DNA from: a virus
Lineage: Duplodnaviria; Heunggongvirae; Uroviricota; Caudoviricetes
Length of the DNA: 64,000 bases
Strand: one strand, 5' to 3'
Virus record (IMG/VR): IMGVR_UViG_2778261375_000003
Position numbers and translations under genes: made by a program. Below, in pieces: positions 1 to 25,607 of this stretch (its first letter is position 1; each line of letters starts with the position of its first letter). The notes beneath the pieces are model-generated. The model was given only the letters and a program-made list of their open reading frames with translations, had not been told where the DNA came from and searched no databases.

Positions 1-342
1 ATGATGAAAAAAAGTATTCTGGCGTTTCTGTTACTCACCAGTTCTGCAGCGGCGCTGGCTGCACCGCAGGTGATTACCGTCAGCCGTTTTGAAGTGGGTA
101 AAGACAAATGGGCGTTTAATCGCGAAGAGGTGATGCTGACTTGCCGACCGGGTAATGCTTTGTATGTCATCAACCCAAGTACCCTCGTGCAGTATCCTTT
201 AAACGATATCGCACAAAAGGAAGTTGCCAGTGGGAAGACTAAAGCCCAACCCATTTCGGTGATTCAGATTGATGATCCTAACAATCCCGGCGAAAAAATG
301 AGTCTGGCACCGTTTATAGAACGAGCTGAAAAACTCTGTTAA
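1..342 (+). CDS. yebY: Periplasmic DUF2511-type protein, YebY-like (host gene)
   Basis: 113-aa ORF from base 1 with signal peptide [20 protein letters not shown]; matches my recollection of E. coli YebY; followed by a hairpin terminator. Confidence 0.6.
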
Positions 343-371
343 TTACCTAAACTAGCGTTTTGATTTCCAAT

Positions 372-413
372 AAAAAAACCGCCTCAGTTCTTTCACCAGA
401 ACGGGCGGTTTTT
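372..413. terminator. Bidirectional rho-independent terminator
   Basis: A-run, imperfect GC stem (ccgcc ... ggcgg), then T-run; reads as hairpin plus U-tract on both strands. Confidence 0.6.
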
Positions 414-500
414 AACATTTAAGCTGATGACCACCGCGCTTTTTATTGACCATTTTGCACGCAAACTGGAAAACCTGGCGTCGTCATCTATTCTTAAAGG

Positions 501-603
501 GCAAGGCAACTAAGCCTGCATTAATGCCAACTTTTAGCGCACGGCTCTCTCCCAAGAGCCATTTCCCTGGACCGAATACAGGAATCGTATTCGGTCTTTT
601 TTT
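501..603 (+). ncRNA. sdsR: SdsR/RyeB-like small RNA
   Basis: gcaaggcaacuaagccugcauuaaugcc... ending in hairpin 571-595 plus T-run 597-603 matches my memory of SdsR; possible -35 TTGACC at 446-451; known to lie next to yebY. Confidence 0.5.
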
Positions 604-734
604 AATTGTATTTAAAATCAATCAGTTGCAAGCGTCTCCCCGAAATTCCCCGAAATTTACTCGAATTTCTGTATTCCGGTCTTTTTTGGTTATATCACAA
701 CCAATATACATTTAACAATCCATTTACGTTAAAA

Positions 735-1811
735 TCAGAGCAGTAAGTACGTTTTTTCTCGCTCATCAAGATACATTTTTGTTGTCTTCTCCGATGTGTG
801 ACCAAGTAGGCGCTGGGCAAATTCTTCTCCACATGTTTCTTTGTACAATCGTCCAGCCAGACTTCTGATCTCGTGAAAAGTTGGTGGGTTTTCACTGAAC
901 TGGATACCTGTTAATTTTCTGGCTGCGACAAATTTTTTTGTCAGGCCATCCGGGTGAATGCTGCCGTCAGGGCTGTTTTTTCTAATCCCGGCACTGATTA
1001 GATAATCTCCCCGGCTTACCAGGCGGCATCGTTCAACTACTGTACCAAGCCGTAGACCAGCGACAGGAAGGCTGAGTGACAGGGGGATAGCAATCATCAT
1101 TCCTGTCTTAATTTGCCTGATGTGGAGACGATCATCATAAATATCACTGAACCGCATATTCGTTATGTCTTCGCGACGTTGTCCTGTTACAAGGGCTAAA
1201 TCCATAGCTAATGGGAACCATGCCGGAAGTTGATCTGCTGCCTCCCTGATGCAGTTGTATGTCTTTAGTTTCAGTCGTTCTCTTGTAACTACTATTTTCG
1301 GTGCTCTTGTTGGTGTTACTGGATTTTGAGATATACGTCCTTCAACAATGGCCTCGCGGAACATATCAGATAACACAGAACGCATTGATCCTGCCATCGT
1401 GTTTTTCCCTCCTTCAATCCACAAATCAAGAAACTCGGCAATATGGCGAGTGGTTATTTCTGTCAGTAAAACCCCTCCTAATTTTTCTTTTATTGTCTCC
1501 AGTTGATTTACCCGAATTTTATAAGTATTTCTGGACACTTTTCTCCTTATAAGAATCGTTTTGTAACGTTCAATCCAGTCTGCCATAGTAAATGAGTCGA
1601 ACCCTTTTAGTTTTTCAATTAAGGCAGCAGGAGAGTAGTTTTTGTATATATAATGATTTGCTTCAATTGCCTGCGCTACTGCATCTCTTCTTGAAATTTT
1701 ACCTAGTGTAAATTCTTCTTTCGTCAGAGGGTTGCGCCAGTAATATGCTTTGTCCCTCCTTCGATATGTTAAGTTTTTAGGCAAATTGGGATCGTATTTT
1801 TTCCGCTGCAT
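735..1811 (-). CDS. int: Tyrosine integrase, lambda Int family
   Basis: 358 aa; C-terminal catalytic region (...[11 protein letters not shown]...[17 protein letters not shown]) closely parallels lambda Int; overlaps xis as in lambda. Confidence 0.9.
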
Positions 1812-2064
1812 GTTTTAACTTCTCCAGTAACGGACTGTCTCTCCCTTGTCGCCCATTAGGCTGATGGTGTGTTATATCGGTATCAACCTTATTTGGGTTG
1901 ATATAGAAAGCTTCCGGAACCACCCTGTAACTCCTCCCGTGTAGTTCAGGTGCAGGATAAATGTTTCCATTCCTTGCCCATCGTCTCAGCGTTGATATTG
2001 ATGGTGGGTTATCCGGATATCTGAGTTTTCCCCACGTTTTGAGTGTCACAAGATTCATTGCCAT
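1777..2064 (-). CDS. xis: Excisionase (Xis-like)
   Basis: Small ORF directly upstream of and overlapping int; winged-helix-like TLRRWARNGNIYPAP resembles lambda Xis. Confidence 0.7.
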   Translation of the reverse strand: MAMNLVTLKTWGKLRYPDNPPSISTLRRWARNGNIYPAPELHGRSYRVVPEAFYINPNKVDTDITHHQPNGRQGRDSPLLEKLKHAAEKIRSQFA

Positions 2065-2164
2065 ACCTCTTACGATATGACCGCCAGTAAATATACAGAA
2101 TACTGGCGGGTGTGGTTGATTTTTAATAATCAGCTATGAAGTTATAATTTGTATATAATGCAAC

Positions 2165-2353
2165 TCACGAGGACAGAAGTTTCTCGCAATTAAAATTTAT
2201 CAGCTTTACTTTCTGCTCTCTGGACACGCCTGCTTCTTTTTTCCCTGAGAGCATTTTTTCGCATTCTGATTTCGTTAATTTAGATTTTGAATATCTTGTC
2301 CAGTTAGTAGGAGTGCCACCTTCTTTTTCAATAGTGGCAGTTATTTTATACAT
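2165..2353 (-). CDS. Hypothetical small protein (YdaC position in Rac)
   Basis: ORF between xis and lar; start chosen at internal Met to limit overlap with lar; start uncertain. Confidence 0.4.
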   Translation of the reverse strand: MYKITATIEKEGGTPTNWTRYSKSKLTKSECEKMLSGKKEAGVSREQKVKLINFNCEKLLSS

Positions 2354-2549
2354 GAACACCTCCATTATTATTTCCAGTAGTTCGTTTATTCCATCTTTCG
2401 AGTGCTTCTTTTTCACTTCCACCATAGCCAGTTCGGGATTCGCATTCGTTGCATTTTGCCCGGTAATACCCTGAAATTGCTTTCACCGTAACAGATGGAC
2501 AACCACAAAACGGACATGGTTTAACATCGTCATATCTCATAATTTTTGT
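2346..2549 (-). CDS. lar: Restriction alleviation protein, Lar/RalR family
   Basis: MTKIMRYDDVKPCPFCGC...CNECESRTGYGGSEKEALERWNKR zinc-ribbon signature of the Lar family; sits upstream of recT as in Rac. Confidence 0.8.
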   Translation of the reverse strand, partial: TKIMRYDDVKPCPFCGCPSVTVKAISGYYRAKCNECESRTGYGGSEKEALERWNKRTTGNNNGGVHV

Positions 2550-2596
2550 CATAAAAACTGTCTCACGTTGGCGGTGCATTACACCGCCAGGCTGAA

Positions 2597-3406
2597 TTAT
2601 TCTTCTGAATTATCGATTACACTGTATTCCCCGGTTAATACAGAGGAGTCTGCCGGATCGATTGTCAGTGGTTCCTTTTCATCCATTGATACTGCACGCT
2701 GGATTTCAATTGAGACAGGCAGGTATTTAAACAGGCGACGAATAGCCGTTTTTTTTGCCATTTCTTCCCAGTGAGTTACCCATGGCCCGTTATTACCAGC
2801 CTTACTCTGGCTGCGCACCAGTTCAATCTGTTTGCGCGTCATAACTTCAAACTGAGTCCCTCCGTCTTTCAGTCTTGCGACAGCATAGACGTGGGTCACT
2901 GGTGCATCTTCGTTTTCTCCCGGGCGGTGTATTAACTTTTCATCAAGGCCAAATTCAAAACTAAACTCGTCACCTTCACGGACAACACGGGCTGACAGGC
3001 TGGCGATTTGACCAGAACGGCGAGCCAGATCAATCATGCCGCGATAACCAATGATTAGCTGAACGTTCTTTTTACCGCTCTTTTCGTTTTTATTACCAAA
3101 AGGCAGTAAATATGCGTGGCCGAGGGCGCTACCTGGCTCAAGGCCGAGCTGTGAACACTGAACGATCGCACTGACAAAACTCATGGTGTCACAGTTTCCT
3201 AGCGCCGGAACCTTACGAATTTCTGTGGTGGCGATACGTATCATTCGTTCAGCCGTCATATGGCGTGGGAGAGCTGCTGCCAGTTGCTCTTTCATTGATG
3301 GCTGATTAATAAAGCTGATCACGTCGTTATTTTTTACTGCTGCTGGTGCACGGTTTCCCTGAGTTTTTTGCAGATCGGCTTTTGCGATTGGTGGTTGCTT
3401 AGTCAT
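2597..3406 (-). CDS. recT: RecT single-strand annealing recombinase
   Basis: 269 aa from [24 protein letters not shown]...; essentially the Rac RecT sequence as I recall it. Confidence 0.95.
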
Positions 3407-6053
3407 TTGCATATTCCTTAGCCCAGCGGGGCAGTGATAACGTCTTAATAGCTGGCCATTCATCGGTATTGAGGCAGTCAGCCAGGGTTCGCAGATTGCG
3501 GTGATATTCCAGCTGACCTGCCAGTTTTGCTTCTTCGCCCATCATGAAAATTTCAACCGGATAACGTCCGCATTCAATAGTTGTGCTGGCAACCAGAAAA
3601 ACGAAAGTTGGCTGCACTCCAAACTGTGCTTCATAACCGTCACTGTAGAATGCATCCTGAACGTGATAGCGGTAGTCGTAATAAGCGGTTTTGAATCGTT
3701 GAATATCCGCCGTAGTTTTCACGTCCATGATCCAGTGAAATTCAGGGATAATTTTGTCCGGACGGCACCGACACAAAATTCCTGTTTCAGGATCTTCCCA
3801 GTAAATTGATGATTCAGCGTGTCCGGCGCTTTCAACAAGCCATTGCCCCAGCGGCAAAGCCATAACGCTTTGATACATGAGTTCAATTTTCCGGCCTTCT
3901 TCCGCAGTGATAACCGTTTTTCCTGTGCTTGCGCATTCCATCAGAAACGCTTTCTCTTCTTCTTTTCCGGCGTTTGTACGGCGGTTAAATTCAGGTGCTA
4001 CGATAAAGCGGTTACTGAATTCTTCCGGTTCAAGTACCCGGCAGTGGAAAGCGGTTCCTAAATCGAGCGTTTTTGTCTTTGTGGTGTCCACGGGGGCATT
4101 TTTACGCCACAAATACAGTGCCGGAGTATCAGCAATGTCGTCGAGCTGAGACTTACTGACACCGGGACCCGCGTGGTAACTCTCATTCGAAATTCCGTAA
4201 TAAATACCTGGCTCTATGTCTTCTACGATTACGGGATCTGCGACTTCGCCAGTTTCATCACTGCAATCGCGATGCGGATCGCTGCCAGCATTCTCATTGT
4301 GCGGATGTTCAGCGCCTTCCATTTCCTCCGGATCATTTTCCTTAGCTTCAACCTGATTCTCTTCACCGAATGTTTCCTGGTATGTTGCGTCGCCCATCAC
4401 CGCACCACAGTCAGGGCAGTTATCCCCGCCAGTCTGACCGCAGGCATTGCAGACTATTTCCGGTTCCTGTTGCACTACTGGCTCAGGTTGTTTCACATCC
4501 GGGCTGGTTTTTTCCGTTTCTGGCGTGTTTTGTTCCGTTTCTGGCTGGTTCTGGTACACAGAATCGCGAGTCTGGATCCCCTTAACCCATTTCGGATCGT
4601 TCGGGTCGCTAATTCCGTCAACAAATTCACCACGTGATGCAGCAAGCAATTTATCGGCATCGACAGGATTTTTTGATGGAATGTTTTTCCGGGCTTCATG
4701 GAGTTCTGCCCGCAGTTCCTGATATTTCGCATCAACAGAATTTACCTGTGACTGAGCATCCAGCGGCTGCGTGTCCTGATGATGTTCAGTTGCGTCCGGT
4801 TCCATTGTTTCAGCCTCTCCCTGTTCATCTGCCGTTGTTCCAGTTGGTTGTGGTTTTTCTTCATCATCCTGTTTTCCTTCTTCTGTTACACGCTGCGGCA
4901 TCGGGGCAGAGGAGCGACCGCAGGCAATATCCACGATTTCCGGATCAGGGTTGGCATGATCGGTTTCAGTCAGTACTTTGTTCAGATATTCAGTGACGTG
5001 CGCGGGGATGACCTCGATCCCAATTGGTGCTTTTTTCACGGACGCAACCACGATGGCGCGTGAATAATCCAGCCCGCCAGGCATGGTGATGAATTTGTCG
5101 CGGAAAACAGAAAAGGGCGGTTTATTTTCAGCGATAATTTCCTCGACACGTTTAGCGTGTGCCGGATGAAGGTTATAAATGTCCACGTCCATTGAACGAG
5201 CCAGTACGCCAGTGGCTACGTCGCGCGCCAGTGACGTCAGATCGTGAACGAAACCTTCGCCGCGATCGGTGAGGTTCCCGCCGCCAGCATTAGCGCCGGA
5301 AGCCGTGCGCGTGATGCGTGAAACACGATTTCCTTTCATCCACTCTTTTGTCAGCAGACCGCGATCGGTGTAGTCTGCGTCCAGGTATGCTTCGAAAAAA
5401 GCAGTCATCAGCCCCAGGCTTGAATTGCCTGGATTAGGGAAAACTCTGTCAGTATCACGCACCAGTTTGTGGAGATCGCGAATTTCCAGCGGGTCGAGCA
5501 GGCTGGTTTTGTGGGAAACAGCCAGGGCAGTAACAGCTGGTAGTTCTTCAGCTCGTGCAATGTGTAATGCCTGGAGTTTGTCGCGTGAAACGTGCGTTAC
5601 CGGTTTTTCGCTGCCGTGTTGAGCAAGCCAGCGAATGGGCAGCTCCTGACCGGAAATCGGGAGTAGCATATTCTCCTCAATCTCCGTCATGTCTTCGCCA
5701 TTAACATTGGTATTGTCAGTGCTGGCTGGTTTGTCCTGCGCAGAGGATGAGGGCGCGATAAATACCATTGTGATGCCATCTTCCCCGCCTTTTTCGTAAC
5801 GGTTGCAGAATTCCGTATCAAATACGCCCTCTGGTGGAAGGTCATCAACAACGGGCAAATTGACGCGAACAGGTTTTTTAAAGTCATCTTCATCGTAGCC
5901 AGCATCGTCAATCGCAACAGCACCACGGGATATGGCAATGGATAATTTTTTCGCTTCAGCCCAGTAGAAACCGCCTTTAATACCGAGACGTTTTCTTACT
6001 TTGTCATTTTTTGCTTCGTAATACAGTGGGTAAACTTGTTTATCGGTGCTCAT
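3399..6053 (-). CDS. recE: RecE exonuclease VIII
   Basis: 884-aa ORF overlapping recT start; acidic low-complexity middle and C-terminal nuclease domain (...[22 protein letters not shown]...) as in Rac RecE. Confidence 0.9.
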
Positions 6054-6152
6054 TGTTTTTTAACCTCAACTCAGATTAAAATTAATGCGAGTGATGAATA
6101 AATGTCCCAGGTTCTTCACTCAGGCCTGCACAGTGTGCAGGCTTTCTTTTTT

Positions 6153-6428
6153 TCAGATTTCACCTTTTAATTTCATTGCAATCAGAGTTGCCAGAAATTC
6201 GGCTTTTTTTTCTGCGGGCAGATTCTTTCCTATGTGCACCAGACACATTTTTTTAACACCATCGTTAAGTGTTTTAACGTTGCCTGATGGACCGTCGATA
6301 TCAACCACAGTGAATGGGGTTTCTTTATTTTCTGTCTTAATCACGTAGCCAATACGCTTTCCTTCCAGGGTAACTTCGTGAACAATGTCATCAGTAGTAA
6401 CAACAGTGGCTTCATAACTGGTAATCAT
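6153..6428 (-). CDS. racC: RacC
   Basis: 91 aa from MITSYEATVVTTDDIVHEV...; matches recalled Rac RacC. Confidence 0.85.
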   Translation of the reverse strand: MITSYEATVVTTDDIVHEVTLEGKRIGYVIKTENKETPFTVVDIDGPSGNVKTLNDGVKKMCLVHIGKNLPAEKKAEFLATLIAMKLKGEI

Positions 6429-6502
6429 GTTTTTCTCCTTAATTAAGGTTGAGTGAATCCCTGCCATTGCTGGCATAAATTCAGTTTCGGATAGTCAGTT
6501 AA

Positions 6503-6673
6503 TTAAAGTTCGTGTGCCATCTGGTCTTTTTCGGCACAGATTTCACTACAATATTTTTTCATTTCCGTCGTTGGTATAACTCCACGCATGAAATGAAGTG
6601 GTCTTGTAATGATTTTGCTTTCTTCAATTTCTTTATTGCAAAGGTGATAAGCACATTTTATTTTCTTAGTCAT
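6503..6673 (-). CDS. ydaE: YdaE-like small zinc-binding protein
   Basis: Hand-translated 56-aa [22 protein letters not shown]...YCSEICAEKDQMAHEL, below the ORF-track size cutoff; start overlaps kilR stop (TAATG). Confidence 0.7.
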   Translation of the reverse strand: MTKKIKCAYHLCNKEIEESKIITRPLHFMRGVIPTTEMKKYCSEICAEKDQMAHEL

Positions 6674-6894
6674 TACCATGACTCCGCCTTTACAGGTAAA
6701 CCATCACGACCGAGGAAGACTTTAATCATGCAGTCAGAAATGCATGTTTTTGTAGTCAGGCTACGAATATAAAGTTTTCGCTTTTTAATATTGTTTGCCG
6801 AGGCGATATACGTCCGGCCTTCATGAAGAACATAATCGCCAGGGGTCACACACTGACGTGGTATTTCATCAGTTCCGAAGTGATGAGCAATCAT
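6673..6894 (-). CDS. kilR: KilR, FtsZ-inhibiting killing protein
   Basis: 73 aa [38 protein letters not shown]...; matches recalled Rac KilR. Confidence 0.85.
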
Positions 6895-7289
6895 AATTAT
6901 CTCCATTTTTACAAATGAATTTTGTCGATGCGGTGCCTGGTGCCTCCAGGTGACGTTAACCAGTTAACAATTAACGCCGGATAATCCACCCATAACACTG
7001 ATGCTTTTAACTGTTCCGCGTGCGCTTAGCCGCATTCACCGCATCACAAAATTCACTTTAAAAAGGGGCGGCAGGGCAGCCACGGAGTAGAACTGATGCC
7101 GCCAAAGACTAGACACAGCAATGTCGTTATTTACAACCGGAGGCGCACTCCCACCATTTAAATTTAACAGACAAGACCGACTCTTTATGAATACCGGAAA
7201 TGCGCCTTCGTGTTGTGCGCCTGTCTTTTTACCACTTCAGGCTCGGTGGTATACTGGAGTTCTCACACAACCAGTAATAAGGTATTCCG

Positions 7290-7484
7290 ATGGATAATAA
7301 AGACAAAGCCTGGCTACTTGCTTTAGCTTTCAGCATCAGATCGCAGCGAGAAACAACTCATCAAGAATTTTTCTCGGAAATCGAGAATGCTGAGAATGAG
7401 TTTTTGTCACTACTCAATGAACGTGATGCTAAAAAAAGCGCCGATTCACTTAAGGCTTGGGCGAAACTAGGCTCTTCAAAATAA
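7290..7484 (+). CDS. Hypothetical small protein
   Basis: 64-aa ORF with upstream -10-like tatact and purine-rich RBS region; no recognised family. Confidence 0.35.
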   Translation: MDNKDKAWLLALAFSIRSQRETTHQEFFSEIENAENEFLSLLNERDAKKSADSLKAWAKLGSSK

Positions 7485-7668
7485 TTGCTTCTGTAGCGGC
7501 ATGAACAACTGTTTTTGCCGCCTCTTCAACTTCCTTGTCTGGACGACCAGCCTTTACTTTTTCTGCAATGACCTCCAGCACAGTTGGAAGAACCTTGCTA
7601 ATAAGCATGGCTGCCACATCTTTGCTGCACAATTGACCGTTAATAACAACCAGATCTTCACCAACCAT
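7450..7668 (-). CDS. Hypothetical small protein
   Basis: 72-aa ORF with strong RBS (aagggg 8 nt upstream of ATG); convergent with and overlapping 7290-7484. Confidence 0.4.
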   Translation of the reverse strand: MVGEDLVVINGQLCSKDVAAMLISKVLPTVLEVIAEKVKAGRPDKEVEEAAKTVVHAATEAIILKSLVSPKP

Positions 7669-7859
7669 CTTTTTTCCCCTTAACGCCGGGTGGCGGAACT
7701 AAAACCTACAGCGCCGTGCTGTTCTTGATATAAATATTAGTAACACGGATATTTTAAGTCAACAGTATGGCGTATGATATTTTTGATTTAGTAACTATGT
7801 AAATGTTTTTTCAAGGGAAAAATATTAGTTATACAGCTGATTTGCAGAAGTTATGGCAC

Positions 7860-7890
7860 AAAAAAACCGACTAAGACGTCGGTTTTTTTG
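7860..7890. terminator. Bidirectional terminator downstream of racR
   Basis: aaaaaaccgac-taag-acgtcggttttttt hairpin flanked by A-run and T-run. Confidence 0.6.
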
Positions 7891-7915
7891 TTGTGGATGG
7901 GGTAGTGAGTGGTGG

Positions 7916-8377
7916 CTACTGGTTACGTTTCTTTAGTGCCAGCATGTTCTCGAAGGCTTCCTCGTAGAGCTTGTTTAGTCCACGTAGCTGGTTAAGGAGT
8001 TTGGCTTTTTCTGACGCAGGTAGAATCTCGAAGAGGTTAAGTAACTCAGCCTGTTCTTCATTGACCAGCCTCCATCCTTTGCCTGAAAAGCTATCATCAT
8101 AAGTATCTGATGATCTTACATAATTCATTAAGTCTTTAAGGTCTTCTCGAATGTCCTCTGGTTTTACCTTTAACAGAGCCGCAAATTTTAGCGCAGCGTC
8201 GGTATTTACCGGTATCTTGCCGTTCAGATACTGGCTAACGGTGCCTTGAGATTCGAATCCCAACAACTCAGCCGCCAGCTCTTGAGTCAGCTTCAGCTCT
8301 TTTTTTCTTGCATTCCATGCGGCTTTTAAATTCTTGCTCGCTTCTGGAGTTGCAATCACTTCGCGTGTTTTTTTCAT
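7916..8377 (-). CDS. racR: RacR-like HTH repressor
   Basis: 153 aa with XRE-type HTH (LTQELAAELLGFESQGTVSQYLNGK); divergent from a Cro-like gene; position equals RacR in Rac. Confidence 0.7.
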   Translation of the reverse strand: MKKTREVIATPEASKNLKAAWNARKKELKLTQELAAELLGFESQGTVSQYLNGKIPVNTDAALKFAALLKVKPEDIREDLKDLMNYVRSSDTYDDSFSGKGWRLVNEEQAELLNLFEILPASEKAKLLNQLRGLNKLYEEAFENMLALKKRNQ

Positions 8378-8425
8378 ACATAGAGTTTATTTGTTTTACC
8401 AATATTATCAAAGATAGTCTGACTG

Positions 8426-8454
8426 TTGATCTTTAAAATTAGTGGAGCTAATAT
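8426..8454 (+). promoter_or_regulatory. Candidate pR-like promoter for ydaS-ydaT
   Basis: TTGATC, 17-bp spacer, TAATAT, about 25 nt upstream of ydaS ATG, in the racR/ydaS divergent region. Confidence 0.4.
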
Positions 8455-8478
8455 TTGCTCGAGGCATAACGTAGAAGG

Positions 8479-8760
8479 TTGGCTATGAACTTAAGAGACT
8501 ATTTAAAAGAGAAACATATCACCCAGTTACAGTTTGGGAAGCTAACGGGTTTATCTCAGGTGCATGTAAGTCGAGTGCTGGGGGGCTATGAAAGATTCAG
8601 CCCTGAAAAAGCATTACGTGTTGCTGAAGTAACGAATTTCGAGGTTACACCTCATGAACTCCGGCCTGATATCTACCCGAATCCGACCGATGGTTTACCT
8701 GTTGGATGTAAGGCTAACACACAAAATGCACAGGAGTTGATTCATGAAAATCAGGCATGA
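8479..8760 (+). CDS. ydaS: YdaS-like Cro-type HTH protein
   Basis: 93 aa, HTH (LTGLSQVHVSRVL), divergent from repressor. Confidence 0.7.
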   Translation: MAMNLRDYLKEKHITQLQFGKLTGLSQVHVSRVLGGYERFSPEKALRVAEVTNFEVTPHELRPDIYPNPTDGLPVGCKANTQNAQELIHENQA

Positions 8761-9166
8761 GCACATCGAATCAGTGTTGTTAGCCCTAGCCGCTGAAAAA
8801 GGGCAGGCGTGGGTCGCTAACGCAATTACTGAAGAATATCTGCGCCAGGGGGGCGGCGAATTGCCCCTGGTACCAGGCAAGGACTGGAATAATCAGCAGA
8901 ACATCTATCACCGTTGGTTAAAAGGTGAAACGGAAGCGCAAAGGGAAAAAATTCAGAAACTGATCCCTGCAATTCTGGCAATCCTTCCGCGCGGGCTGCG
9001 TCACCGACTCTGCATCTTCGATACCCTGGAACGCCGTGCATTACTGGCGGCGCAGGAAGCGTTGAGTACGGCAATTGATGCGCATGATGATGCAGTCCAG
9101 GCCGTTTACCGGAAAGCACATTTCAGCGGTGGTGGGTCGCCCGGCGATTCTGTCGTAGTGCATTGA
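8744..9166 (+). CDS. ydaT: YdaT-like protein
   Basis: 140 aa, overlaps ydaS 3' end; length and position match Rac YdaT. Confidence 0.7.
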   Translation: MKIRHEHIESVLLALAAEKGQAWVANAITEEYLRQGGGELPLVPGKDWNNQQNIYHRWLKGETEAQREKIQKLIPAILAILPRGLRHRLCIFDTLERRALLAAQEALSTAIDAHDDAVQAVYRKAHFSGGGSPGDSVVVH

Positions 9167-9210
9167 TTGAAATTAATCGTGCCGGATTGTTTTGTTCGGT
9201 ATCAGTTAAA

Positions 9211-9630
9211 TGTAACGCTGCGAGCGTTACAAGGTGAAAACAAATGGCTTCAAACTGGATAAAGCTCGAGGTTATTACGCCGGATAAGCCGGAAATATTC
9301 AGGCTTGCTGAGATTCTGAATATTGATCCAGATGCCGCATTAGGGAAGGTTATTCGCTTCTGGGCATGGGCGGATCAACAAATGATAGACGGTAATGCAG
9401 ATTGTAACGCTCGCGGCGTTACAAAAAGTGCAATAGATCGCATCACTTTTATGGCTGGTTTTGCTGATGCGTTAATTCAGGTTGGATGGCTGGTCGAAAA
9501 TGACGGTGGGCTTTCTCTACCTAACTTTGAACGTCATAACGGGAAAAGCTCTAAAAAACGGGCGGTTACAAACGAGCGAGTTACAAAAATACGCGAACTG
9601 AAACGAAAAGGTAACGCTGGCAGCGTTACA
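9211..9630. repeat. Three copies of a GTAACGC(N)GCGTTAC palindrome plus one degenerate copy
   Basis: Perfect palindromes at 9211-9231, 9403-9423, 9611-9630 and a degenerate gttaca...gttaca at about 9565-9585; first overlaps the ydaU RBS region, others lie inside ydaU. Confidence 0.8.
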
Positions 9631-10032
9631 CAAATGGATCAAAAAGCGTTACCAGAGGAAGAGGAAGAGGAAGATATAAATACTGATCTCCCCCTAAATC
9701 CCCCTCGCCAAAAACGAGCGTCTAAAAAATTTGAGCCGGAGGCTATTGAGCTGCCCGATTGGTTGCCGGAAACACTCTGGCATGAGTGGGTCCGGTTCAG
9801 GCAGGCATTGCGAAAACCGATTCGAACGGAGCAGGGCGCTAACGGGGCGATACGGGAGCTGGAAAAATTCCGCCAGCAGGGTTTTACACCTGAGCAGGTG
9901 ATTCGACACAGCATCGCCAATGAATACCAGGGCCTGTTCGCGCCGAAAGGTGTTCGGCCTGAGACGTTGCTCCGACAGGTTAACACTGTCTCGTTGCCGG
10001 ACAGTGCGATCCCGCCAGGCTTCAGGGGGTAA
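9244..10032 (+). CDS. ydaU: YdaU-like replication initiation protein (lambda O analogue)
   Basis: 262 aa directly upstream of a DnaC-like gene; carries internal palindromic repeats. Confidence 0.65.
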   Translation: MASNWIKLEVITPDKPEIFRLAEILNIDPDAALGKVIRFWAWADQQMIDGNADCNARGVTKSAIDRITFMAGFADALIQVGWLVENDGGLSLPNFERHNGKSSKKRAVTNERVTKIRELKRKGNAGSVTQMDQKALPEEEEEEDINTDLPLNPPRQKRASKKFEPEAIELPDWLPETLWHEWVRFRQALRKPIRTEQGANGAIRELEKFRQQGFTPEQVIRHSIANEYQGLFAPKGVRPETLLRQVNTVSLPDSAIPPGFRG

Positions 10033-10038
10033 CGGACC

Positions 10039-10785
10039 ATGAAAAATATTGCGACAGGCGGCGTTCTGGAACGCATCCGCCGACTGACCCCGCCACATGT
10101 AACCGCCCCATTCAGAACGGTAGCGGAGTGGCGCGAGTGGCAACTTGCTGAAGGCCAGAAACGTTGTGAGGAGATCAACCGTCAGAATCGTCAGTTGCGG
10201 GTGGAAAAAATTCTGAATCGTTCAGGCATCCAGCCGTTGCACCGTAAATGCTCATTTGCGAATTACCAGGTGCAGAACGACGGCCAGCGATACGCGTTAA
10301 GCCAGGCGAAATCCATCGCCGATGAACTGATGACCGGGTGTACAAATTTTGCGTTCAGCGGAAAACCTGGTACCGGGAAGAATCACTTAGCGGCAGCTAT
10401 CGGGAATCGCCTGCTGAAAGACGGTCAGACAGTGATTGTGGTTACCGTGGCTGATGTTATGAGCGCCCTGCACGCCAGCTATGACGACGGGCAGTCAGGC
10501 GAAAAATTTTTGCGGGAGCTGTGCGAAGTGGATCTGCTGGTTCTTGATGAAATTGGCATTCAGCGCGAGACGAAAAACGAGCAGGTGGTGCTGCACCAGA
10601 TTGTTGATCGCCGGACAGCGTCGATGCGCAGCGTGGGGATGCTGACAAACCTGAACTATGAGGCCATGAAAACATTGCTCGGCGAGCGGATTATGGATCG
10701 CATGACCATGAACGGCGGGCGATGGGTGAATTTTAACTGGGAGAGCTGGCGTCCGAATGTCGTCCAGCCAGGAATTGCGAAGTGA
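10039..10785 (+). CDS. ydaV: YdaV-like DnaC/IstB-type helicase loader ATPase
   Basis: 248 aa, Walker [16 protein letters not shown], Walker B LLVLDEIG. Confidence 0.85.
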
Positions 10786-10807
10786 TTTTTACCGGGAGGA
10801 AATTTTA

Positions 10808-11569
10808 ATGGAGACTGTTTTTGACGCACTGAAAGCGATGGGAAAAGCCACGTCGGTAGAGCTGGCTGCGCGACTTGATATCAGTCGTGAAGAAGTACTG
10901 AACGAGCTGTGGGAACTGAAAAAGGCTGGCTTCGTTGATAAAAGCGTATACACCTGGCGTGTGGCTGATAACAACGTTCAGCAGGAACAGCCAGCGCCAG
11001 AAGAACAGCCGGAAGAAACCACCACGGCGACAGTAGCGAAAATCTCAGAGTGCGATTTAACCGCGACGATTGAACAACGCGGACCACAAACGGCGGATGA
11101 ACTGGCTACGCTGTTCGGTACAACATCCCGCAAAGTGGCTTCAACGCTGGCAATGGCAATCAGCAAAGGTCGTCTGATTCGCGTAAATCAGGGCGGTAAA
11201 TTTCGTTACTGCATACCGGGCGATAATTTACCAGCAGAGCCGAAAGCTGCATCGGTAGCGGAAACTGATGGTAAAGCCTTTCCTCAGCCTGCATGTGTTG
11301 CGTTACCAGTACAGGAGGCTGCAACACAGGAAGATATTAAAACAGAAACTGTGGCGGACATTGTGCAGTCGCTGCCATCGTTCACCGAAACGCGAGCGGA
11401 TGACCTGATTTTACCATCGCTGCATATGGCAAACCGCGAACTGCGTCGGGCGAAAAGTCATGTCCAGAAGTGGGCGCGAGTCTGCGCCGCGCTGCGGGAG
11501 CTGAACAAGCACCGGGATATTGTTCGACAGATTACTGATTCTTCCCGACGTGTTGTATCGGAAAAGTGA
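10808..11569 (+). CDS. Hypothetical phage protein (YdaW position)
   Basis: Start set at ATG 10808 behind gggagg RBS; acidic/proline-rich linker; no recognised motif. Confidence 0.5.
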
Positions 11570-11584
11570 TTGCCGGAGGCACTT

Positions 11585-12007
11585 ATGGCAAAAGTATTTA
11601 CACAAGAAGAGCGGGAAAAAATTAAAGGGCAGGTTGTTGAGCTAGTACGCCGGAGTGGGCGCGAGACGTTACGGCAACTGGAAGCCAAGACAGGTGCGAC
11701 AAGATATCTGATGAGCGTTCTCGCCAGAGAGCTTGTTGCCAGTGGCGATGTATACAACTCTGGTTACGGGTTATTTCCGTCTGAACAGGCCCGTAAGGAC
11801 TGGCAAAACGCCCGCAAAAAACTATCCAGGGCAAAGGTGAAAAAAACGGTTGTGGTTGATCCTGACCTTATCTGGTCATTACCAGACGGAGAAATACGCC
11901 GCTACGACAGGCGTCTGAACATAATCTGTCGCGAGTGCCGGAAGAGCGAAGCTATGCAGCGTGTACTGGCTTTCTATCAGGGTAATTTTCAGGAGGCGGT
12001 ACTGTGA
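11585..12007 (+). CDS. Hypothetical phage protein
   Basis: ATG 11585 behind ggagg RBS; 140 aa. Confidence 0.5.
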   Translation: MAKVFTQEEREKIKGQVVELVRRSGRETLRQLEAKTGATRYLMSVLARELVASGDVYNSGYGLFPSEQARKDWQNARKKLSRAKVKKTVVVDPDLIWSLPDGEIRRYDRRLNIICRECRKSEAMQRVLAFYQGNFQEAVL

Positions 12008-12064
12008 GTGAAATTAGCTATCAGGCTTCAATTGCCGCTGGCATTCGCATCAAAGGAGAGGAGC

Positions 12065-12421
12065 ATGGAAATAAAACCAGAAGATGAGTTAAGTAATATT
12101 GTTTTATTTCCGGTAAAAGAGGATGACCCACGTAATCAGGTTAATTTTCTTTATGAGCCATCGGAAAGACCATATTGTCATCACGCCTCTGTCCGGGTTG
12201 ACGAAAAAGAGCGTCAGGTCCGCTGTAAAATCTGCGGTGCAGTTGTGGAGCCATTTGACTGGATGCTCTCTGTGGCGAAAAGAGAAACCAGACTGGCAGA
12301 TGATGTAAGGCTATTGCGTCAGGAGGAACAGGAAAGGCGAAAAAATATAGAAAAGCTAATTCAGATTGAGCGTAACGCGAAAGCGCGGATAAGCAGGGTG
12401 ACAAAATCAAGAACTGAATAA
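12065..12421 (+). CDS. Hypothetical protein with C/H zinc-ribbon-like motif
   Basis: ATG 12065 behind aaaggagaggagc RBS; CHH...CKICG motif. Confidence 0.5.
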   Translation: MEIKPEDELSNIVLFPVKEDDPRNQVNFLYEPSERPYCHHASVRVDEKERQVRCKICGAVVEPFDWMLSVAKRETRLADDVRLLRQEEQERRKNIEKLIQIERNAKARISRVTKSRTE

Positions 12422-12514
12422 TTTAAATTTAGCACTGTTAAAAATTTAATCCTTAACCGGAGGGATTTCTGCACCCTCAGAACATCAGGAGTCCGCCCGA
12501 AAGGGCGGTAAGAA

Positions 12515-12733
12515 ATGACTACATTATTCAGAAAAGAATATCCGCGAAGAAGTAGAACGACAGAATTTTTGTTTCTCATTCTGTTTATCGTGTTGATGAC
12601 ACCGATATCCCCGCTAATTTTTGTCTGGGCAATCGGGAAAATAATTGAGCCAGTTATTGAATTGTATAACGACGTGGTATGGGCGTCGTTCAACACACTG
12701 CACAATAAAATTAATCCGTATAAGGAAAGCTGA
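12515..12733 (+). CDS. Small hydrophobic membrane protein
   Basis: 72 aa with one long hydrophobic helix (FLFLILFIVLMTPISPLIFVWAIG). Confidence 0.4.
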   Translation: MTTLFRKEYPRRSRTTEFLFLILFIVLMTPISPLIFVWAIGKIIEPVIELYNDVVWASFNTLHNKINPYKES

Positions 12734-12734
12734 T

Positions 12735-13166
12735 ATGACCACTATTACCACTATTACCAGAGAAAACGCGGAGATTAAATCATTCATCACTGGTTTCCTG
12801 AGCGACCCGGCGCACGATAACCAATCTTCAGACAGCCTGCTTGCCAATGTGTTTCGTATCGCGCTGGCTTCGCTGGAAGCAGAACCAGTTGCATGGACTG
12901 ATGATGAGGAACTGCGTGATGTCAAGCAGTATGGTCTCGGTGAGATATTTCAGTGCCCGCCAGATAAATACGCAGACTCGCGTCGTGTAATTCCGCTGTA
13001 TCGTGTGCCGCCAGCTTCCATGGTGCAGGCACAGGGCATAGAGATTGCAATAAACGAACTGGTGGCTCTGTCCCCACGCTTGGATAAACAGGCGGTGGAA
13101 ACTCTTTCTATGGCTGTGGAACATTTACGCAAACTGGTTAAGAAGCAGTTGCAGACTAAGGACTAA
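12735..13166 (+). CDS. Hypothetical phage protein, paralogue A
   Basis: ATG 12735 behind aaggaaag RBS; begins MTTIT and contains RIALASLEAEPVA, both shared with next gene. Confidence 0.55.
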   Translation: MTTITTITRENAEIKSFITGFLSDPAHDNQSSDSLLANVFRIALASLEAEPVAWTDDEELRDVKQYGLGEIFQCPPDKYADSRRVIPLYRVPPASMVQAQGIEIAINELVALSPRLDKQAVETLSMAVEHLRKLVKKQLQTKD

Positions 13167-13169
13167 CCC

Positions 13170-13865
13170 ATGACCACTATTACCAAAGAACGTATTGAAT
13201 TGTTCATTAAAAATCCGCTTGAAAACGGGCTTGCTCGTAGCGAACAAATGGAAGTGGCACGGATCGCTTTGGCATCGCTGGAAGCAGAGCCGGTGGCATA
13301 TCAGTATCGCCAGTGGGATGCAGAATATGATGAATGGGGAGAATGGGAAGATTGCGGGGAATGTGCTTTCGAAAGATTCGTTGAGGAAGAGAAATGCCAG
13401 GGGGCAGGTGTTCAGACCCGTAAGCTTTACACCGCCCCTCCAGTGCCGGTAGTGCCAGAGGAAATCAGCATGGCTTCAAAGTTGCCTCTCATGAGTGACC
13501 AGTTGATGTTAGTAGGTTATGTGAAGGGGTGGAACGCCTGCCGCGCAGCCATGCTTCAGTCCGGAAACTTTCGGGAAATCTCGGAAACGTCAACCAACTC
13601 TCCGATAACTCTGACTCCTTTGCCTGGTGGTTTCACCATTGAGGATGCGAAGGAGTTACATGAAGACCTGGTACGCAGCCACATAAGCCAGGCTTTAAGT
13701 GGCGAGAAGATGAAAAAGAAAGATCGTGATGCTGATTTGCTCTGGATTCATGGCGTTATAGTACAGGCAGCGTGGTTTGTGAAAGCCTCACTGGATGCGT
13801 TGCCTGAACCGCTGCGGGAGGAGAAGGGAGGAAGTCCAACTGAAGAAAGTGAAGCCGGACTGTAA
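13170..13865 (+). CDS. Hypothetical phage protein, paralogue B
   Basis: 231 aa; shares MTTIT N-terminus and ARIALASLEAEPVA block with previous gene. Confidence 0.55.
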   Translation: MTTITKERIELFIKNPLENGLARSEQMEVARIALASLEAEPVAYQYRQWDAEYDEWGEWEDCGECAFERFVEEEKCQGAGVQTRKLYTAPPVPVVPEEISMASKLPLMSDQLMLVGYVKGWNACRAAMLQSGNFREISETSTNSPITLTPLPGGFTIEDAKELHEDLVRSHISQALSGEKMKKKDRDADLLWIHGVIVQAAWFVKASLDALPEPLREEKGGSPTEESEAGL

Positions 13866-13931
13866 ATTACCGAGTAAGGCGATGGACTACCTGAAGCGAA
13901 ACGGGCTGACAAGCGTGGAGGATATTTTACG

Positions 13932-14015
13932 ATGACCTGGCCTGAGGCATTCACCACGGTAGGAATTGCAATGGCGGTGGCGCTGGTGGTGTATTCGATT
14001 TGCCGCTGGGGATAA
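13932..14015 (+). CDS. Possible 27-aa hydrophobic peptide
   Basis: Hand-found ORF MTWPEAFTTVGIAMAVALVVYSICRWG; below ORF-track cutoff; speculative. Confidence 0.25.
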   Translation: MTWPEAFTTVGIAMAVALVVYSICRWG

Positions 14016-14203
14016 AAACGGTTTGCGGGAAAAGGAGAGTTAAGTAGAATTGCAGCGGGTGCTTGAGGCTATCTGCCTCGGGCATGAACACCAACGGCAG
14101 ATAGATAAAAGCCCCACCCGACTATAAATCGAAGTGAGGCCCCTATATGCTCGTCACATATAGATTGCCTCTTACGGACCGAAAGGTCAAGGAGAAGCAG
14201 GCT

Positions 14204-14359
14204 ATGAAGCAGCAAAAGGCGATGTTAGTCGCCCTGATCGTCATCTGTTTAACCGTCATAGTGACGGCACTGGTAACGAGGAAAGACCTCTGCGAGGTAC
14301 GAATCCGAACCGGCCAGACGGAGGTCGCTGTCTTCGTAGACTACGAACCTGAGGAGTAA
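14204..14359 (+). CDS. hok: Hok/Gef-family type I toxin
   Basis: 51 aa MKQQKAMLVALIVICLTVIVTALVTRKDLCEVRIRTGQTEVAVFVDYEPEE, near-identical to recalled HokD/RelF; in-frame upstream ATG at 14147 could act as a mok-like leader. Confidence 0.9.
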   Translation: MKQQKAMLVALIVICLTVIVTALVTRKDLCEVRIRTGQTEVAVFVDYEPEE

Positions 14360-14427
14360 GAGACCCGGCGGGGGAGAAATCCCTCGCCACCTCTGATGTG
14401 TCAGGCATCCTCAACGCACCCGCACTT

Positions 14428-14450
14428 ACCCCGCTTCGGCGGGTTTTTTG
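14428..14450 (+). terminator. Rho-independent terminator of hok transcript
   Basis: ccccgcttcggcggg hairpin followed by tttttt. Confidence 0.7.
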
Positions 14451-14637
14451 TTGTTTATTTTCGGTGAGCATGATGCATCTGGTTGTACTGATGTGGCTGG
14501 CTGATTCTGTTATTCAGGTGGCTTATTGCTGTTGATTGGTATGTCTTCACGGCTAGAATCGAGGCTCTTAAGTAGCGCGCAGGGAGAAGAGGGATGGACC
14601 CCGAAGGGGAAGAGCTATTTATCTGGAAGGATTCTGA

Positions 14638-14813
14638 AGATGAAAATCGAAGAATTGCGTGAAATTTTTAGTGAAAATGGCCTCTATGCTGTGCGCGTTG
14701 AGAATGGGAAAGTTGTCTACACAACGTTAATCCCTGATGATCATGTAATTTTATCTATCGAGGCATTCATTGAATACCTTGAAAGGCTCGGTTTCAAGGT
14801 GGTTCGCGAATGA
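14638..14813 (+). CDS. Hypothetical small protein
   Basis: 58-aa ORF from MKIEELREIF; start chosen at internal ATG. Confidence 0.4.
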
Positions 14814-14872
14814 GTTATAATTCGTAAGCCAGCCTGAACAACTGGCAACCTACAGCGCCATTGGAGGCAGCA

Positions 14873-15472
14873 ATGGCGCATATACAACTGGTCAAACAAA
14901 CCTCTTCCGGATTACTTCTCCCGGCGACGCCGGAGAGTTGTGATTTTCTGCATCAAATCAAAATAGGTGAGTGGATACACGCAGACTTTAAGCGTGTGCG
15001 TAACTACGCGTTCCACAAGCGTTTTTTCAAACTCCTGCAACTGGGATTCGATTACTGGACTCCGAACGGTGGGGCGATCACGCCTCGCGAACGAGAACTG
15101 GTGTCCGGTTTCGTTGAGTATCTGTGCGAATCAGTTGGTCGGGAACACACTCCAGCCCTGAGCGAAGCCGCAGAGCAATATCTGAATGCCGTTGCGACAC
15201 GCAGAACCCGGGATACGGCATTGCTAAAGTCGTTTGACGCTTTCCGCGAGTGGGTAACCATTCAGGCCGGATTTTACACCGAGCATATTTATCCTGATGG
15301 TAGTCGTGGGCGCAGGGCAAAATCTATCGCATTTGCGAATATGGACGAAACCGAGTTTCAGCAGGTTTATAAATCTGTACTGAATGTGCTGTGGAACTGG
15401 ATCCTGTTCCGTAAATTTTCCTCTCCGGAGGAAGTCGAAAATGTGGCCGCACAGTTACTGGAGTTTGCGTAA
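14873..15472 (+). CDS. Nin-region protein, DUF1367-like
   Basis: ATG 14873 behind ggagg RBS; recalled as the family paired with DUF1364 upstream of Q in lambdoid prophages. Confidence 0.5.
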   Translation: MAHIQLVKQTSSGLLLPATPESCDFLHQIKIGEWIHADFKRVRNYAFHKRFFKLLQLGFDYWTPNGGAITPRERELVSGFVEYLCESVGREHTPALSEAAEQYLNAVATRRTRDTALLKSFDAFREWVTIQAGFYTEHIYPDGSRGRRAKSIAFANMDETEFQQVYKSVLNVLWNWILFRKFSSPEEVENVAAQLLEFA

Positions 15473-15762
15473 TGGTGGATTTACGTAAAGCGGCGCGGGG
15501 GCAGATGTGCACCGTCAGAATTCCTGGCTACTGCAATCACAATCCCGAAACTTCTGTGCTGGCGCATTACAGGCTGGCGGGGACGTGCGGAACAGCGACA
15601 AAACCACACGATATGCAGGCAGCGATTGCCTGTAGCTCATGCCACGATCTAATCGACGGGCGGGTAAAAACCAGCGATTACACCAAAGAAGAATTACGCC
15701 TGATGCATGCAGAAGGTGTTTTTCGCACACAAGAAATCTGGAGAAAGGAAGGTTATTTATGA
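15472..15762 (+). CDS. DUF1364 protein, YbcO-like
   Basis: MVDLRKAARGQMCTVRIPGYCNHNPETSVLAHYRL...CSSCHD resembles recalled YbcO; ATGG start overlaps previous stop. Confidence 0.7.
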   Translation: MVDLRKAARGQMCTVRIPGYCNHNPETSVLAHYRLAGTCGTATKPHDMQAAIACSSCHDLIDGRVKTSDYTKEELRLMHAEGVFRTQEIWRKEGYL

Positions 15763-16313
15763 TTTACCCAACAAATACAGGCAAAAGCGGGGAACACCTT
15801 CGTCTCACCACGCTGGAAAGTGTCTGGATTCAGGGAAAACTGCGCATGTGGGGGCGCTGGTCGTATATTGGCGGCGGTAAGACGGGAAATATGTTCAACC
15901 AGTTGCTGACCTCTAAAAAGCTGACAAAAACGGCAATTAACGAGGCGCTCCGGAGGATGAAAAAAGCAGGTCTGGACAAACCTGAACTTGAGGCTTTTTT
16001 GCGGGATATGATCAACGGCAAGCAAAAAAGCTGGCTGGTGCATTGTACTGATGCAGAGGCGTTATGCATTGATCGGGTGATTAGTGAAGTGCTGGCAGAA
16101 CACCCAGGATTGATTTGTATCCTCCGGCAACGATATGAAGGGAGGGGGATGACTAAGCGAAAAATGGCTGAGTTGCTGAATGATTCACACCCTGAGTGGT
16201 GTTACGCCACGTGCCGTAATCGCATAGATGCGTGGTTGAAAATGGCAGAGTTTATGCTCTATCTGCCGATGCGTGATGCATTCTCTTCCGGGGATCTAAA
16301 AACCGTCTGTTGA
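15759..16313 (+). CDS. Late-gene antiterminator, Q21-like
   Basis: 184 aa; blocks LRMWGRWSYIGG / CTDAEALCIDRVI / RIDAWLKMAEFMLYL parallel recalled phage-21-type Q; followed by promoter plus short terminated leader. Confidence 0.6.
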   Translation: MIYPTNTGKSGEHLRLTTLESVWIQGKLRMWGRWSYIGGGKTGNMFNQLLTSKKLTKTAINEALRRMKKAGLDKPELEAFLRDMINGKQKSWLVHCTDAEALCIDRVISEVLAEHPGLICILRQRYEGRGMTKRKMAELLNDSHPEWCYATCRNRIDAWLKMAEFMLYLPMRDAFSSGDLKTVC

Positions 16314-16339
16314 CTCAATCTGTTATCCGGGGCTATATT
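16310..16339 (+). promoter_or_regulatory. Candidate late promoter pR'
   Basis: TTGACT (16310-16315), 18-bp spacer, TATATT (16334-16339), overlapping the Q stop codon. Confidence 0.4.
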
Positions 16340-16400
16340 CCTCACGCGCCAGCAAAATCTGGCGTCGGGATTGGCGTCCTGGATAGAGACCGCGACAGAT

Positions 16401-16422
16401 ACACGCCGCGAGCGTGTTTTTT
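16401..16422 (+). terminator. Candidate tR' terminator of a short pR' leader RNA
   Basis: acacgccgcgagcgtgt hairpin plus tttttt, about 75 nt downstream of the predicted pR' start. Confidence 0.5.
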
Positions 16423-16583
16423 ATTGTCGTATGCACGCGCACATCTGAATTATGGTGGGCTGTGTGGGGGCGGAGAGATCCGCGCCGGTCGGTTTCCCGG
16501 TTACGCCAACCCTGCACAGTTCACCACCAGATGATTGGCGTCGTCGGTGGTGAGTTATTAAGAAACCACCAGAGGGCGTCATT

Positions 16584-17195
16584 ATGACAACTCAAATTTC
16601 TGTTGAAACTCTCTCCCCGATCACCCATAACCAGATTCCTGTTATTACCACCGAACTTTTGGCGCAGCTTTACGGCACTGAGCCGGTGCGCATTCGCCAG
16701 AATCATCATGAGAACAAAGTACGCTTCGTTGAAGGGAAACACTTTTTCAAAGTTGTTGGTAATGACCTTAAAGAATTGCGGGTAGCTTTAAACTACTCAC
16801 AAAATTTGCGGGTTACTTTAAGTAACTCACAAAATTTGCAACCATCTTTAAGAGGGTTACAAATTTCCCCGAAAGCCCGCTCCCTCATCCTCTGGACAGA
16901 ACGCGGAGCAGCCCGTCATGCCAAAATGCTCGAAACCGATCAGGCGTGGGATGTGTTCGAAAAGCTGGAAGACTGCTATTTCAGACAAAAGGATCCGTCA
17001 GCGCCAGCTTCATGCCAGAAAAGTTACGACACGCGAGTTCTCTGTTATCAGCGAGGCGGTGTCACTGTTTCCACAATTCAGTTGCGGGATGATGATATTG
17101 TTATTTCCCTTGAGTCATGGCTGGAACTGGCGAGAGCCAATGGTTGGTTTGTTGTTCGCAGAGATAAACTGGTGGAAAGGCTGATGCAGCTTTAA
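16584..17195 (+). CDS. ORF6N-domain protein (antirepressor-like), with internal 30-bp tandem repeat
   Basis: N-terminus PVITTELLAQLYGTEPVRIRQNHHENKVRFVEGKHFFKV fits remembered ORF6N pattern; 30-bp unit repeated about 2.5 times at 16776-16865. Confidence 0.55.
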   Translation: MTTQISVETLSPITHNQIPVITTELLAQLYGTEPVRIRQNHHENKVRFVEGKHFFKVVGNDLKELRVALNYSQNLRVTLSNSQNLQPSLRGLQISPKARSLILWTERGAARHAKMLETDQAWDVFEKLEDCYFRQKDPSAPASCQKSYDTRVLCYQRGGVTVSTIQLRDDDIVISLESWLELARANGWFVVRRDKLVERLMQL

Positions 17196-17290
17196 AAAAG
17201 TTCTTGCAATTTTAGCCATAAACTGCTTCAATTCCGTTACGCTTCGCAAAGCTGTATCGCGAGGCGAACCAAGCGCATGAACTTTACCAG

Positions 17291-17316
17291 AACCCGCCAT
17301 TGAGCGGGTTTTGTTG
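17291..17316 (+). terminator. Rho-independent terminator after ORF6N gene
   Basis: aacccgccattgagcgggtttt hairpin plus T-rich tract. Confidence 0.6.
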
Positions 17317-17332
17317 TTTCTGGAGAACACCC

Positions 17333-17605: not shown

Positions 17606-17661
17606 CAGCGACAGTAAATTGGGTAAAATTTTCTACGCTGCAATATGCGAAAGGGGATGAA

Positions 17662-18917: not shown

Positions 18918-18920
18918 TTA

Positions 18921-24369: not shown

Positions 24370-24383
24370 ATCGCAGGTAACAC

Positions 24384-25604: not shown

Positions 25605-25607
25605 AAA

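Follow-up and report, generated by a model that had tools for sequence, protein, structure and literature searches.

The stretch of DNA analyzed here (64,000 nucleotides, referred to as the window) begins with the chromosomal gene yebY, continues through the overlapping genes of two small RNAs, SdsR (RyeB) on the plus strand and RyeA (SraC) on the minus strand, and then passes into a lambdoid prophage that carries its integrase gene at this end (Table 1). RyeA has been described as an antitoxin to the SdsR "toxin".

Table 1. Features of the attL region, the adjoining prophage and its distal junction (window coordinates).
Feature	Position	Strand	Basis or remark
yebY (DUF2511 family), conserved left flank	1..342	+	Pfam DUF2511, RefSeq annotation
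RyeA (SraC) gene, retained 3' four-fifths	371..604	-	own promoter and first 37-51 nt gone
Bidirectional intrinsic terminator	374..413	both	ends yebY on +, RyeA or antisense read-through on -
sdsR sigma-S promoter region	460..500	+	sequence same as K-12; assignment from PMC6610125, PMC3333887
SdsR (RyeB) sRNA	501..603	+	501-588 host-derived, 589-603 phage-supplied
Extended att similarity	573..604		CGAA-n-ACAGGAATCGT-n-TTCGGTCT-n-TTTTTA; attP = attB at 29/32 positions
attL core	578..588		11-bp uninterrupted identity ACAGGAATCGT of attP and attB
Rac-like lambdoid prophage body	605..42216		int, xis, ralR/RalA, recT, recE, DicF, sok, isrK/C4 region
Phage P' arm	605..734		contiguous phage DNA in free-phage attP
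IHF consensus AATCAATCAGTTG	616..628		one of 3 strict matches in whole 64 kb; predicted site
Two tandem CCCCGAAAT motifs	within 638..656		candidate arm-type Int sites; third, related copy in attP P arm
Degenerate second copy of terminator 3' half, GTATTCCGGTCTTTTTT	671..687		also in free-phage attP
Tyrosine integrase, lambda/HK022 family, 358 aa	735..1811	-	Pfam PF09003, PF22022, PF00589 above cut-offs
Excisionase	1777..2064	-	Pfam PF07825 Exc, E 6.5e-14; RefSeq annotation of homologous locus
Hybrid 26-bp serine-invertase crossover site TTCTCCCAAACC-AA-GGTATTGGATAA	42203..42228		pix/cix halves

SdsR is present at full length. Positions 504-603 of the plus strand match the complete Rfam model SdsR_RyeB (RF00111, model positions 1-100) with 118.1 bits against a gathering score of 38, downstream of yebY and on the same strand, where the initial annotation had placed this RNA. 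G501 corresponds to the published SdsR start as derived from the primers of Choi 2019 (PMC6610125). Between 437 and 588, a segment that includes the sdsR promoter region, there are zero differences from K-12; the sigma-S dependence of sdsR is described in PMC3333887. The RNA ends in a terminator-like hairpin with an 11-bp stem at 569-597, a 7-nt loop and a folding energy of -15.8 kcal/mol, followed by six T at 598-603, or a run of seven U when the closing U at 597 is counted. Compared to the E. coli attB allele it carries two substitutions, A for G at 589 and T for C at 598. The former replaces a U-G pair by a U-A pair, and the U tract is uninterrupted because C598 has been replaced by U. A stem-stabilizing role of A589 was considered and dropped, the hybrid and K-12 hairpins being equally stable (-15.8 kcal/mol each). 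SdsR thus stays full length in the lysogen, and its terminator folds in the same way. Upstream, the hairpin between yebY and sdsR has energies of -19.8 kcal/mol on the plus strand and -20.6 kcal/mol on the minus strand, with a U run after each, and its position agrees with the 272-nt RyeA of PMC6610125.

The integrase has the three domains of its family (arm-binding, core-binding, and catalytic). In its match to lambda Int structures (E-value 2.7e-72), the R, K, H-x-x-R, H, and Y motifs are in register; in the alignment to lambda Int 5j0n, the segments TGQRR, KTG, HEIRS, GHTS, and MY occupy the catalytic positions. Identity to HK022 Int is about 41%. The excisionase reading frame overlaps the start of int, and further into the prophage there are structural genes and a tail-fibre invertible segment. 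Rfam also located regulatory RNAs at 2169-2347, 7066-7117, 14057-14206, and 16333-16531, namely RalA (the antitoxin of RalR), DicF, a sok-like RNA, and an isrK/C4/a1b1 cluster that resembles the antirepressor control regions of Gifsy-1 and P1 immI.

The locus had been proposed to be a prophage insertion at the ryeA/ryeB hot spot, and genome comparisons support this proposal. Positions 1-604 were matched in 5426 of 5426 complete E. coli genomes, with continuation into the integrase in 228, while a 601-bp probe across the K-12 site found yebY-sdsR-pphA uninterrupted in 5191 of the same set. With so many empty sites next to 228 genomes carrying the junction, the insertion is real and does not represent the ancestral state. 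Interrupted sites amount to about 4% of complete E. coli genomes, nearly all of them with this type of int. Alignment to the empty yebY-pphA reference, the check that had been suggested for delimiting attL, showed by BLAST that homology with the empty K-12 site ends at 604; past that position nothing in the window, and hence no attR, matched it. The integrase gene does lie some 130 bp after SdsR as the initial annotation stated, but it is the stop codon of int, and not its start, that is found 131 nt after position 604. Use of this site by mobile elements has precedents. The ryeA/ryeB hot spot is known from phage PhiW104 of Salmonella enterica DT104 (Balbontin 2008, J Bacteriol 190:4075, as presented in PMC7380047), ryeB is among the phage targets tabulated by Bobay 2013 (PMC3603311), "RyeB" serves as an island site label in PMC10111431, and a Yersinia prophage adjoining a YebY family gene has a 27-bp att (PMC12653942).

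To define the attachment site, four sequences were aligned: attB of K-12, attL of the window, attR of strain CS6L, and attP of the free-phage record PP818812. The quartet was completed with these two relatives, and not from the source genome, because the window runs into P1-like DNA at 42.2 kb. In the alignment, attB reads ...GGACCGAAT-ACAGGAATCGT-GTTCGGTCTCTTTTTATCTG... and attP reads ...TTGACGAAA-ACAGGAATCGT-ATTCGGTCTTTTTTTAATTG...; attL combines the bacterial left flank with the phage right flank, and attR of CS6L the phage left flank with the bacterial right flank. This pattern is consistent with attB x attP recombination into attL and attR around a common core. The core spans the 7-nt loop of the SdsR terminator and the two adjacent stem base pairs on either side. 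An intact relative of the prophage is found in strain CS6L; its attL and attR cores are 44.5 kb apart, the arrangement is yebY-attL-int ... pinE-attR-pphA, and its attR has the bacterial G and C alleles. In PP818812 the contiguous attP equals the attR P arm joined to the attL P' arm, and the Int is 98% identical to that of the window.

Allele comparisons show how much of SdsR comes from the phage. Empty sites of three lineages (K-12, O157:H7, and EcN) all have G589 and C598, whereas three of four E. coli lysogen attLs (the window and loci L002 and L005) carry A589 together with a T at 598 or close to it. Positions 589-604 of SdsR are therefore phage-supplied, and the 3' half of its terminator is phage-derived. 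The fourth attL, L009 (CP178302.1), keeps the bacterial G at the equivalent of 589 and is of phage type from the U tract onward (ACAGGAATCGTgttcggttcttttttt), which suggests that the boundary of exchange or repair within the extended core may be variable and can lie a few bases further right. With the core at 578-588 and homology ending at 604, the insert boundary falls within the last 26 nt of SdsR, in agreement with the last ~23 bp of ryeB described for the hot spot.

The P' arm between the end of homology and int contains candidate accessory sites (Table 1). By sequence match, two copies of the predicted arm-type motif CCCGAAA(T) were located in the P' arm and a further one in the P arm. 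The distance from the original SdsR terminator 3' half to the degenerate GTATTCCGGTCTTTTTT copy is 84 nt, and in an IMG/VR prophage (L067) precisely the segment separating the two has been lost; the second copy may represent a fossil att. As a second terminator the 671-687 copy was unconvincing: folding of the P' arm gave nothing better than shuffled sequence on either strand. A strong double hairpin is found in the attP P arm of the free-phage record (L006, positions 1960-2060) and also in locus L004 (5366-5450). It has an energy of -39.4 kcal/mol (z -5.9) on the int-sense strand and sits at the far P-arm end, where lambda has tI/sib. In the prophage state this double hairpin is parted from int.

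We conclude, with a probability of roughly 90%, that a Rac-like lambdoid temperate phage has integrated into the Rho-independent terminator of sdsR (ryeB) by lambda-type site-specific recombination. In the mechanism we propose, Int, together with Xis and probably IHF, would recognize the dyad symmetry of the terminator, and strand exchange would occur within ACAGGAATCGT (578-588), that is, in the loop and its adjacent base pairs. The attP would bring its own descending terminator arm and U tract, and attL would therefore rebuild a full-length SdsR. Whatever lies rightward of the crossover in an uninterrupted site, including the sigma-70 promoter of RyeA with the initial 37-51 nt of that gene and also pphA, would have moved about 44 kb away to attR. 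The expected attR of this prophage would consist of P arm-ACAGGAATCGTGTTCGGTCTCTTTTTATCTG adjoining pphA, with the sequence TTGACGAAAACAGGAATCGTGTTCGGTCTCTTTTTATCTG.

The initial annotation had drawn a different layout, in which the phage lies downstream of an intact SdsR/RyeA pair and both the attL core and the native RyeA promoter are found in 600-735. The Rfam model SraC_RyeA (RF00101) does match from end to end at 607-463 of the minus strand, with 179.1 bits against a gathering score of 37. However, this match is misleading because the model covers only 145 nt, mostly the part antisense to SdsR, whereas E. coli RyeA is a 272-nt sigma-70 transcript (PMC6610125). According to the primers in the same study, the RyeA +1 maps to the window-equivalent 641 of the empty site, 37 nt beyond the SdsR 3' end, with the -10 element at about 648-653, in a part of the K-12 sequence that the window lacks. 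The RyeA start is thus right of the crossover, and neither its own sigma-70 promoter nor its mapped 5' end is in the window: nucleotides +1 to +37 and the promoter have been swapped for unrelated phage DNA, and +38 to +51 for a phage mimic. The attL core was likewise misplaced, as it lies at 578-588 inside the SdsR terminator, with imperfect phage-derived homology extending to 604. Since the duplicated core lies at 578-604 and the free-phage attP contains the entire 605-734 segment as one unbroken piece of phage DNA, the intact-pair layout is highly improbable. Lying right of the crossover, the RyeA start is therefore displaced to the attR side next to pphA, and in the attR of CS6L the RyeA promoter sequence is visible, pointing into the prophage.

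Integration as we describe it could also leave regulation largely compensated. Any leftover antisense RNA over sdsR would have to start in phage DNA, by read-through from int or from a promoter in the P' arm, and such a RyeA-like RNA might keep the control of SdsR largely in place or put it under the prophage. There is no minus-strand intrinsic terminator between the int stop (735) and the 374-413 terminator, so int read-through would be RyeA-like; int, however, is normally silent in a stable lysogen according to established lambda biology. One minus-strand sigma-70-like match is present, with a -35 at 732-727 and a -10 at 708-703, but it scores 9/12, and the region has this single match versus 3.9 in shuffled sequence. 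Two observations from other hosts count in favor of compensation: the SraC promoter of Salmonella and Shigella has been placed elsewhere than that of E. coli and is poorly conserved (PMC3333887), and in the PhiW104 lysogen, as far as its description in PMC7380047 goes, ryeA was reduced and not abolished. Compensation of this kind is a tentative reading, which we regard as less likely than not.

The far end of the prophage is where the window departs from its chromosomal relatives. Positions 42200-64000 are 97-98% identical to P1-like phage-plasmids of 90-100 kb and include P1-type C4/a1b1 immunity RNAs. Homology to the chromosomal prophage ends at 42219 and P1 homology starts at 42200, around a hybrid crossover site in which the left half-site together with the central AA corresponds to the pix site of the prophage and the right half-site to a P1 cix site. 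A hybrid tail-fibre reading frame of 673 aa (41864-43885, minus strand) runs in frame across the junction. The duplicated core that the initial annotation proposed to look for at the far prophage end was not found, as the window has no second copy with up to 3 mismatches beyond that in attL. From about 42.2 kb onward the distal prophage end has given way to P1-like DNA, and the window therefore lacks attR, the RyeA promoter, and pphA; for pphA this was confirmed by BLAST of the K-12 locus against the 64 kb.

The same junction gives substance to the view that the prophage is a defective or immobilized remnant, or the window in part an assembly chimera, and that the source strain has no functional attL/attR pair. 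At least 21.8 kb of P1-like DNA is joined at 42.2 kb, no complete E. coli genome spans this junction or holds the whole window, and attR was not found in it. On the other hand, the attL junction recurs in 228 complete genomes, and int and xis are intact. The P1 junction is also placed exactly on the 26-bp invertase site with the tail-fibre frame preserved, and therefore looks like recombination and not like a random misjoin. We consider a remnant or chimera unlikely. A Pin/Cin-mediated event that fused a P1-like plasmid with the prophage would account for the layout of the junction, which may represent a natural cointegrate; in that case a reciprocal hybrid site ATCTCCCAAACCAACGTTTATGAAAA would be expected, followed by pin. 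It may also be a misassembly, and homologous recombination within a shared invertible segment is another possible origin. One P1-like plasmid carries an invertible segment of 95.7% identity, which weakens the junction as proof of invertase-mediated fusion. A chromosomal P1-like region in strain PK-F-10122 was considered as a match and rejected, because it sits at an unrelated site.

Returning to the integration into the sdsR terminator, its expected consequences concern RyeA, SdsR, and pphA, and are extrapolated from K-12 promoter mutants and from one Salmonella phage as summarized in PMC7380047. Native antisense control and transcriptional interference by RyeA on sdsR would be lost, and without RyeA-mediated degradation and interference SdsR should rise, probably reaching higher levels and appearing earlier. 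In K-12, where pphA starts 396 bp after yebY, most of its transcription comes from sdsR-promoter read-through (PMC6610125); in the lysogen, at a distance of at least 44 kb, it would be uncoupled from this promoter and its expression should fall. A rewiring of RyeA/SdsR after integration, as the initial annotation had supposed, is a reasonable expectation because PhiW104 lowers ryeA and raises ryeB in Salmonella, according to the summary of Balbontin 2008 in PMC7380047.

The similarity to PhiW104 extends to the site itself. As recounted in PMC7380047 (citing Balbontin 2008), that phage uses the last 23 bp of ryeB, with ryeA down and ryeB up, and the 5' part of ryeA is "modified". In both cases the target is the last ~23-25 bp of ryeB/sdsR, internal to ryeA, the 3' end of the sRNA is rebuilt, and the 5' part and promoter of ryeA are displaced. 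Unlike PhiW104, however, the element studied here is a lambdoid phage of Rac-like RecET/RalR type with E. coli as its host, and the displaced right flank in E. coli includes pphA with its dependence on read-through from the sdsR promoter.

The recombination machinery resembles the Int-Xis-IHF system of lambda and HK022, with a three-domain Int that has the full set of catalytic residues, an Xis frame overlapping int, a predicted IHF site next to the core, repeated candidate arm motifs, and an attP adjoining the int 3' end. It differs from lambda in using an sRNA terminator hairpin in place of the gal-bio intergenic attB, and in having an attP that mimics the 3' sequence of a gene, which lambda does not need. 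It also resembles the integrases that target tRNA and tmRNA genes, for which, in the outline of Williams 2002 given in PMC3603311, the crossover lies in a loop between symmetric stem arms and the phage brings a replacement 3' segment, so that the RNA gene is intact after integration. Unlike those targets, SdsR is an Hfq-dependent regulatory sRNA with an overlapping antisense partner, and because sdsR and ryeA overlap in antisense, restoring the gene of one strand truncates that of the other. The early region is like that of the K-12 Rac prophage, with ralR/RalA (219 bits), recT, recE, kilR-type genes, and a DicF-type sRNA. K-12 Rac is located at ttcA (ydaO) and has a different integrase; the prophage described here uses the sdsR att/int module and is a full-length element that includes structural genes.

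A more speculative idea is that SdsR acts as a host-supplied, sib-like retroregulator of the integrase. No minus-strand terminator is found from int to the yebY/RyeA terminator, and the int transcript would therefore have a 3' extension of ~100 nt perfectly complementary to SdsR. SdsR, which is abundant and sigma-S dependent, might pair with this 3' end, bring about RNase III cleavage, and suppress excision in stationary phase, whereas the prophage read-through could be an SdsR antagonist that replaces RyeA. Given that the free-phage attP has its double hairpin at the corresponding place, what becomes of int mRNA would depend on whether the phage is integrated, as in lambda. We regard this scenario as a long shot.

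The site appears to be in wide use. An exact-pattern scan of IMG/VR for the core returned at least 120 stretches, and among the matches listed more than 60 were SdsR-core-phage junctions with a minus-strand Int homologue of 49-99% identity. In most of the listed loci the int gene ends 80-145 nt from the core; the distance is 51 nt in the L067 deletion variant and about 1.3 kb in L076. The hosts include several enterobacteria, with yebY flanks 71-99% identical to that of E. coli. Among the listed matches the same core is flanked by dozens of different P and P' arms, which points to recurrent use by different elements. With so many Int variants and arms sharing one core, we therefore view a whole integrase lineage as dedicated to the SdsR terminator. 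A single-sequence scan of genome contigs with Int returned two near-identical loci only.

These findings make a clean E. coli case of a regulatory sRNA terminator serving as a phage attachment site, with the sRNA kept and its antisense partner decapitated. Judging from the account of the 2008 Salmonella work in PMC7380047, the phenomenon was published then, and the E. coli case extends known biology without changing it. The roughly 4% of E. coli strains with the prophage would be natural RyeA-promoter and pphA-uncoupling variants, which is relevant when SdsR regulons are compared between strains.

Two related records deserve mention. In E. coli strain 10153 (NZ_AP027191.1, locus L134), an attR made up of the same P arm and core adjoins pphA around position 3006, and the type III effector gene nleG7 belongs to the prophage ending there; lambdoid phages with effector genes therefore use the sdsR att/int module as well. 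The free-phage record PP818812.1 is named "Actinobacillus phage vB_Apl-pPE4". Its attP (2212-2352) mimics the E. coli-type SdsR 3' end and it has RecET genes; the stated Actinobacillus host looks doubtful. The contiguous attP in this record suggests that phages of this type may still excise.
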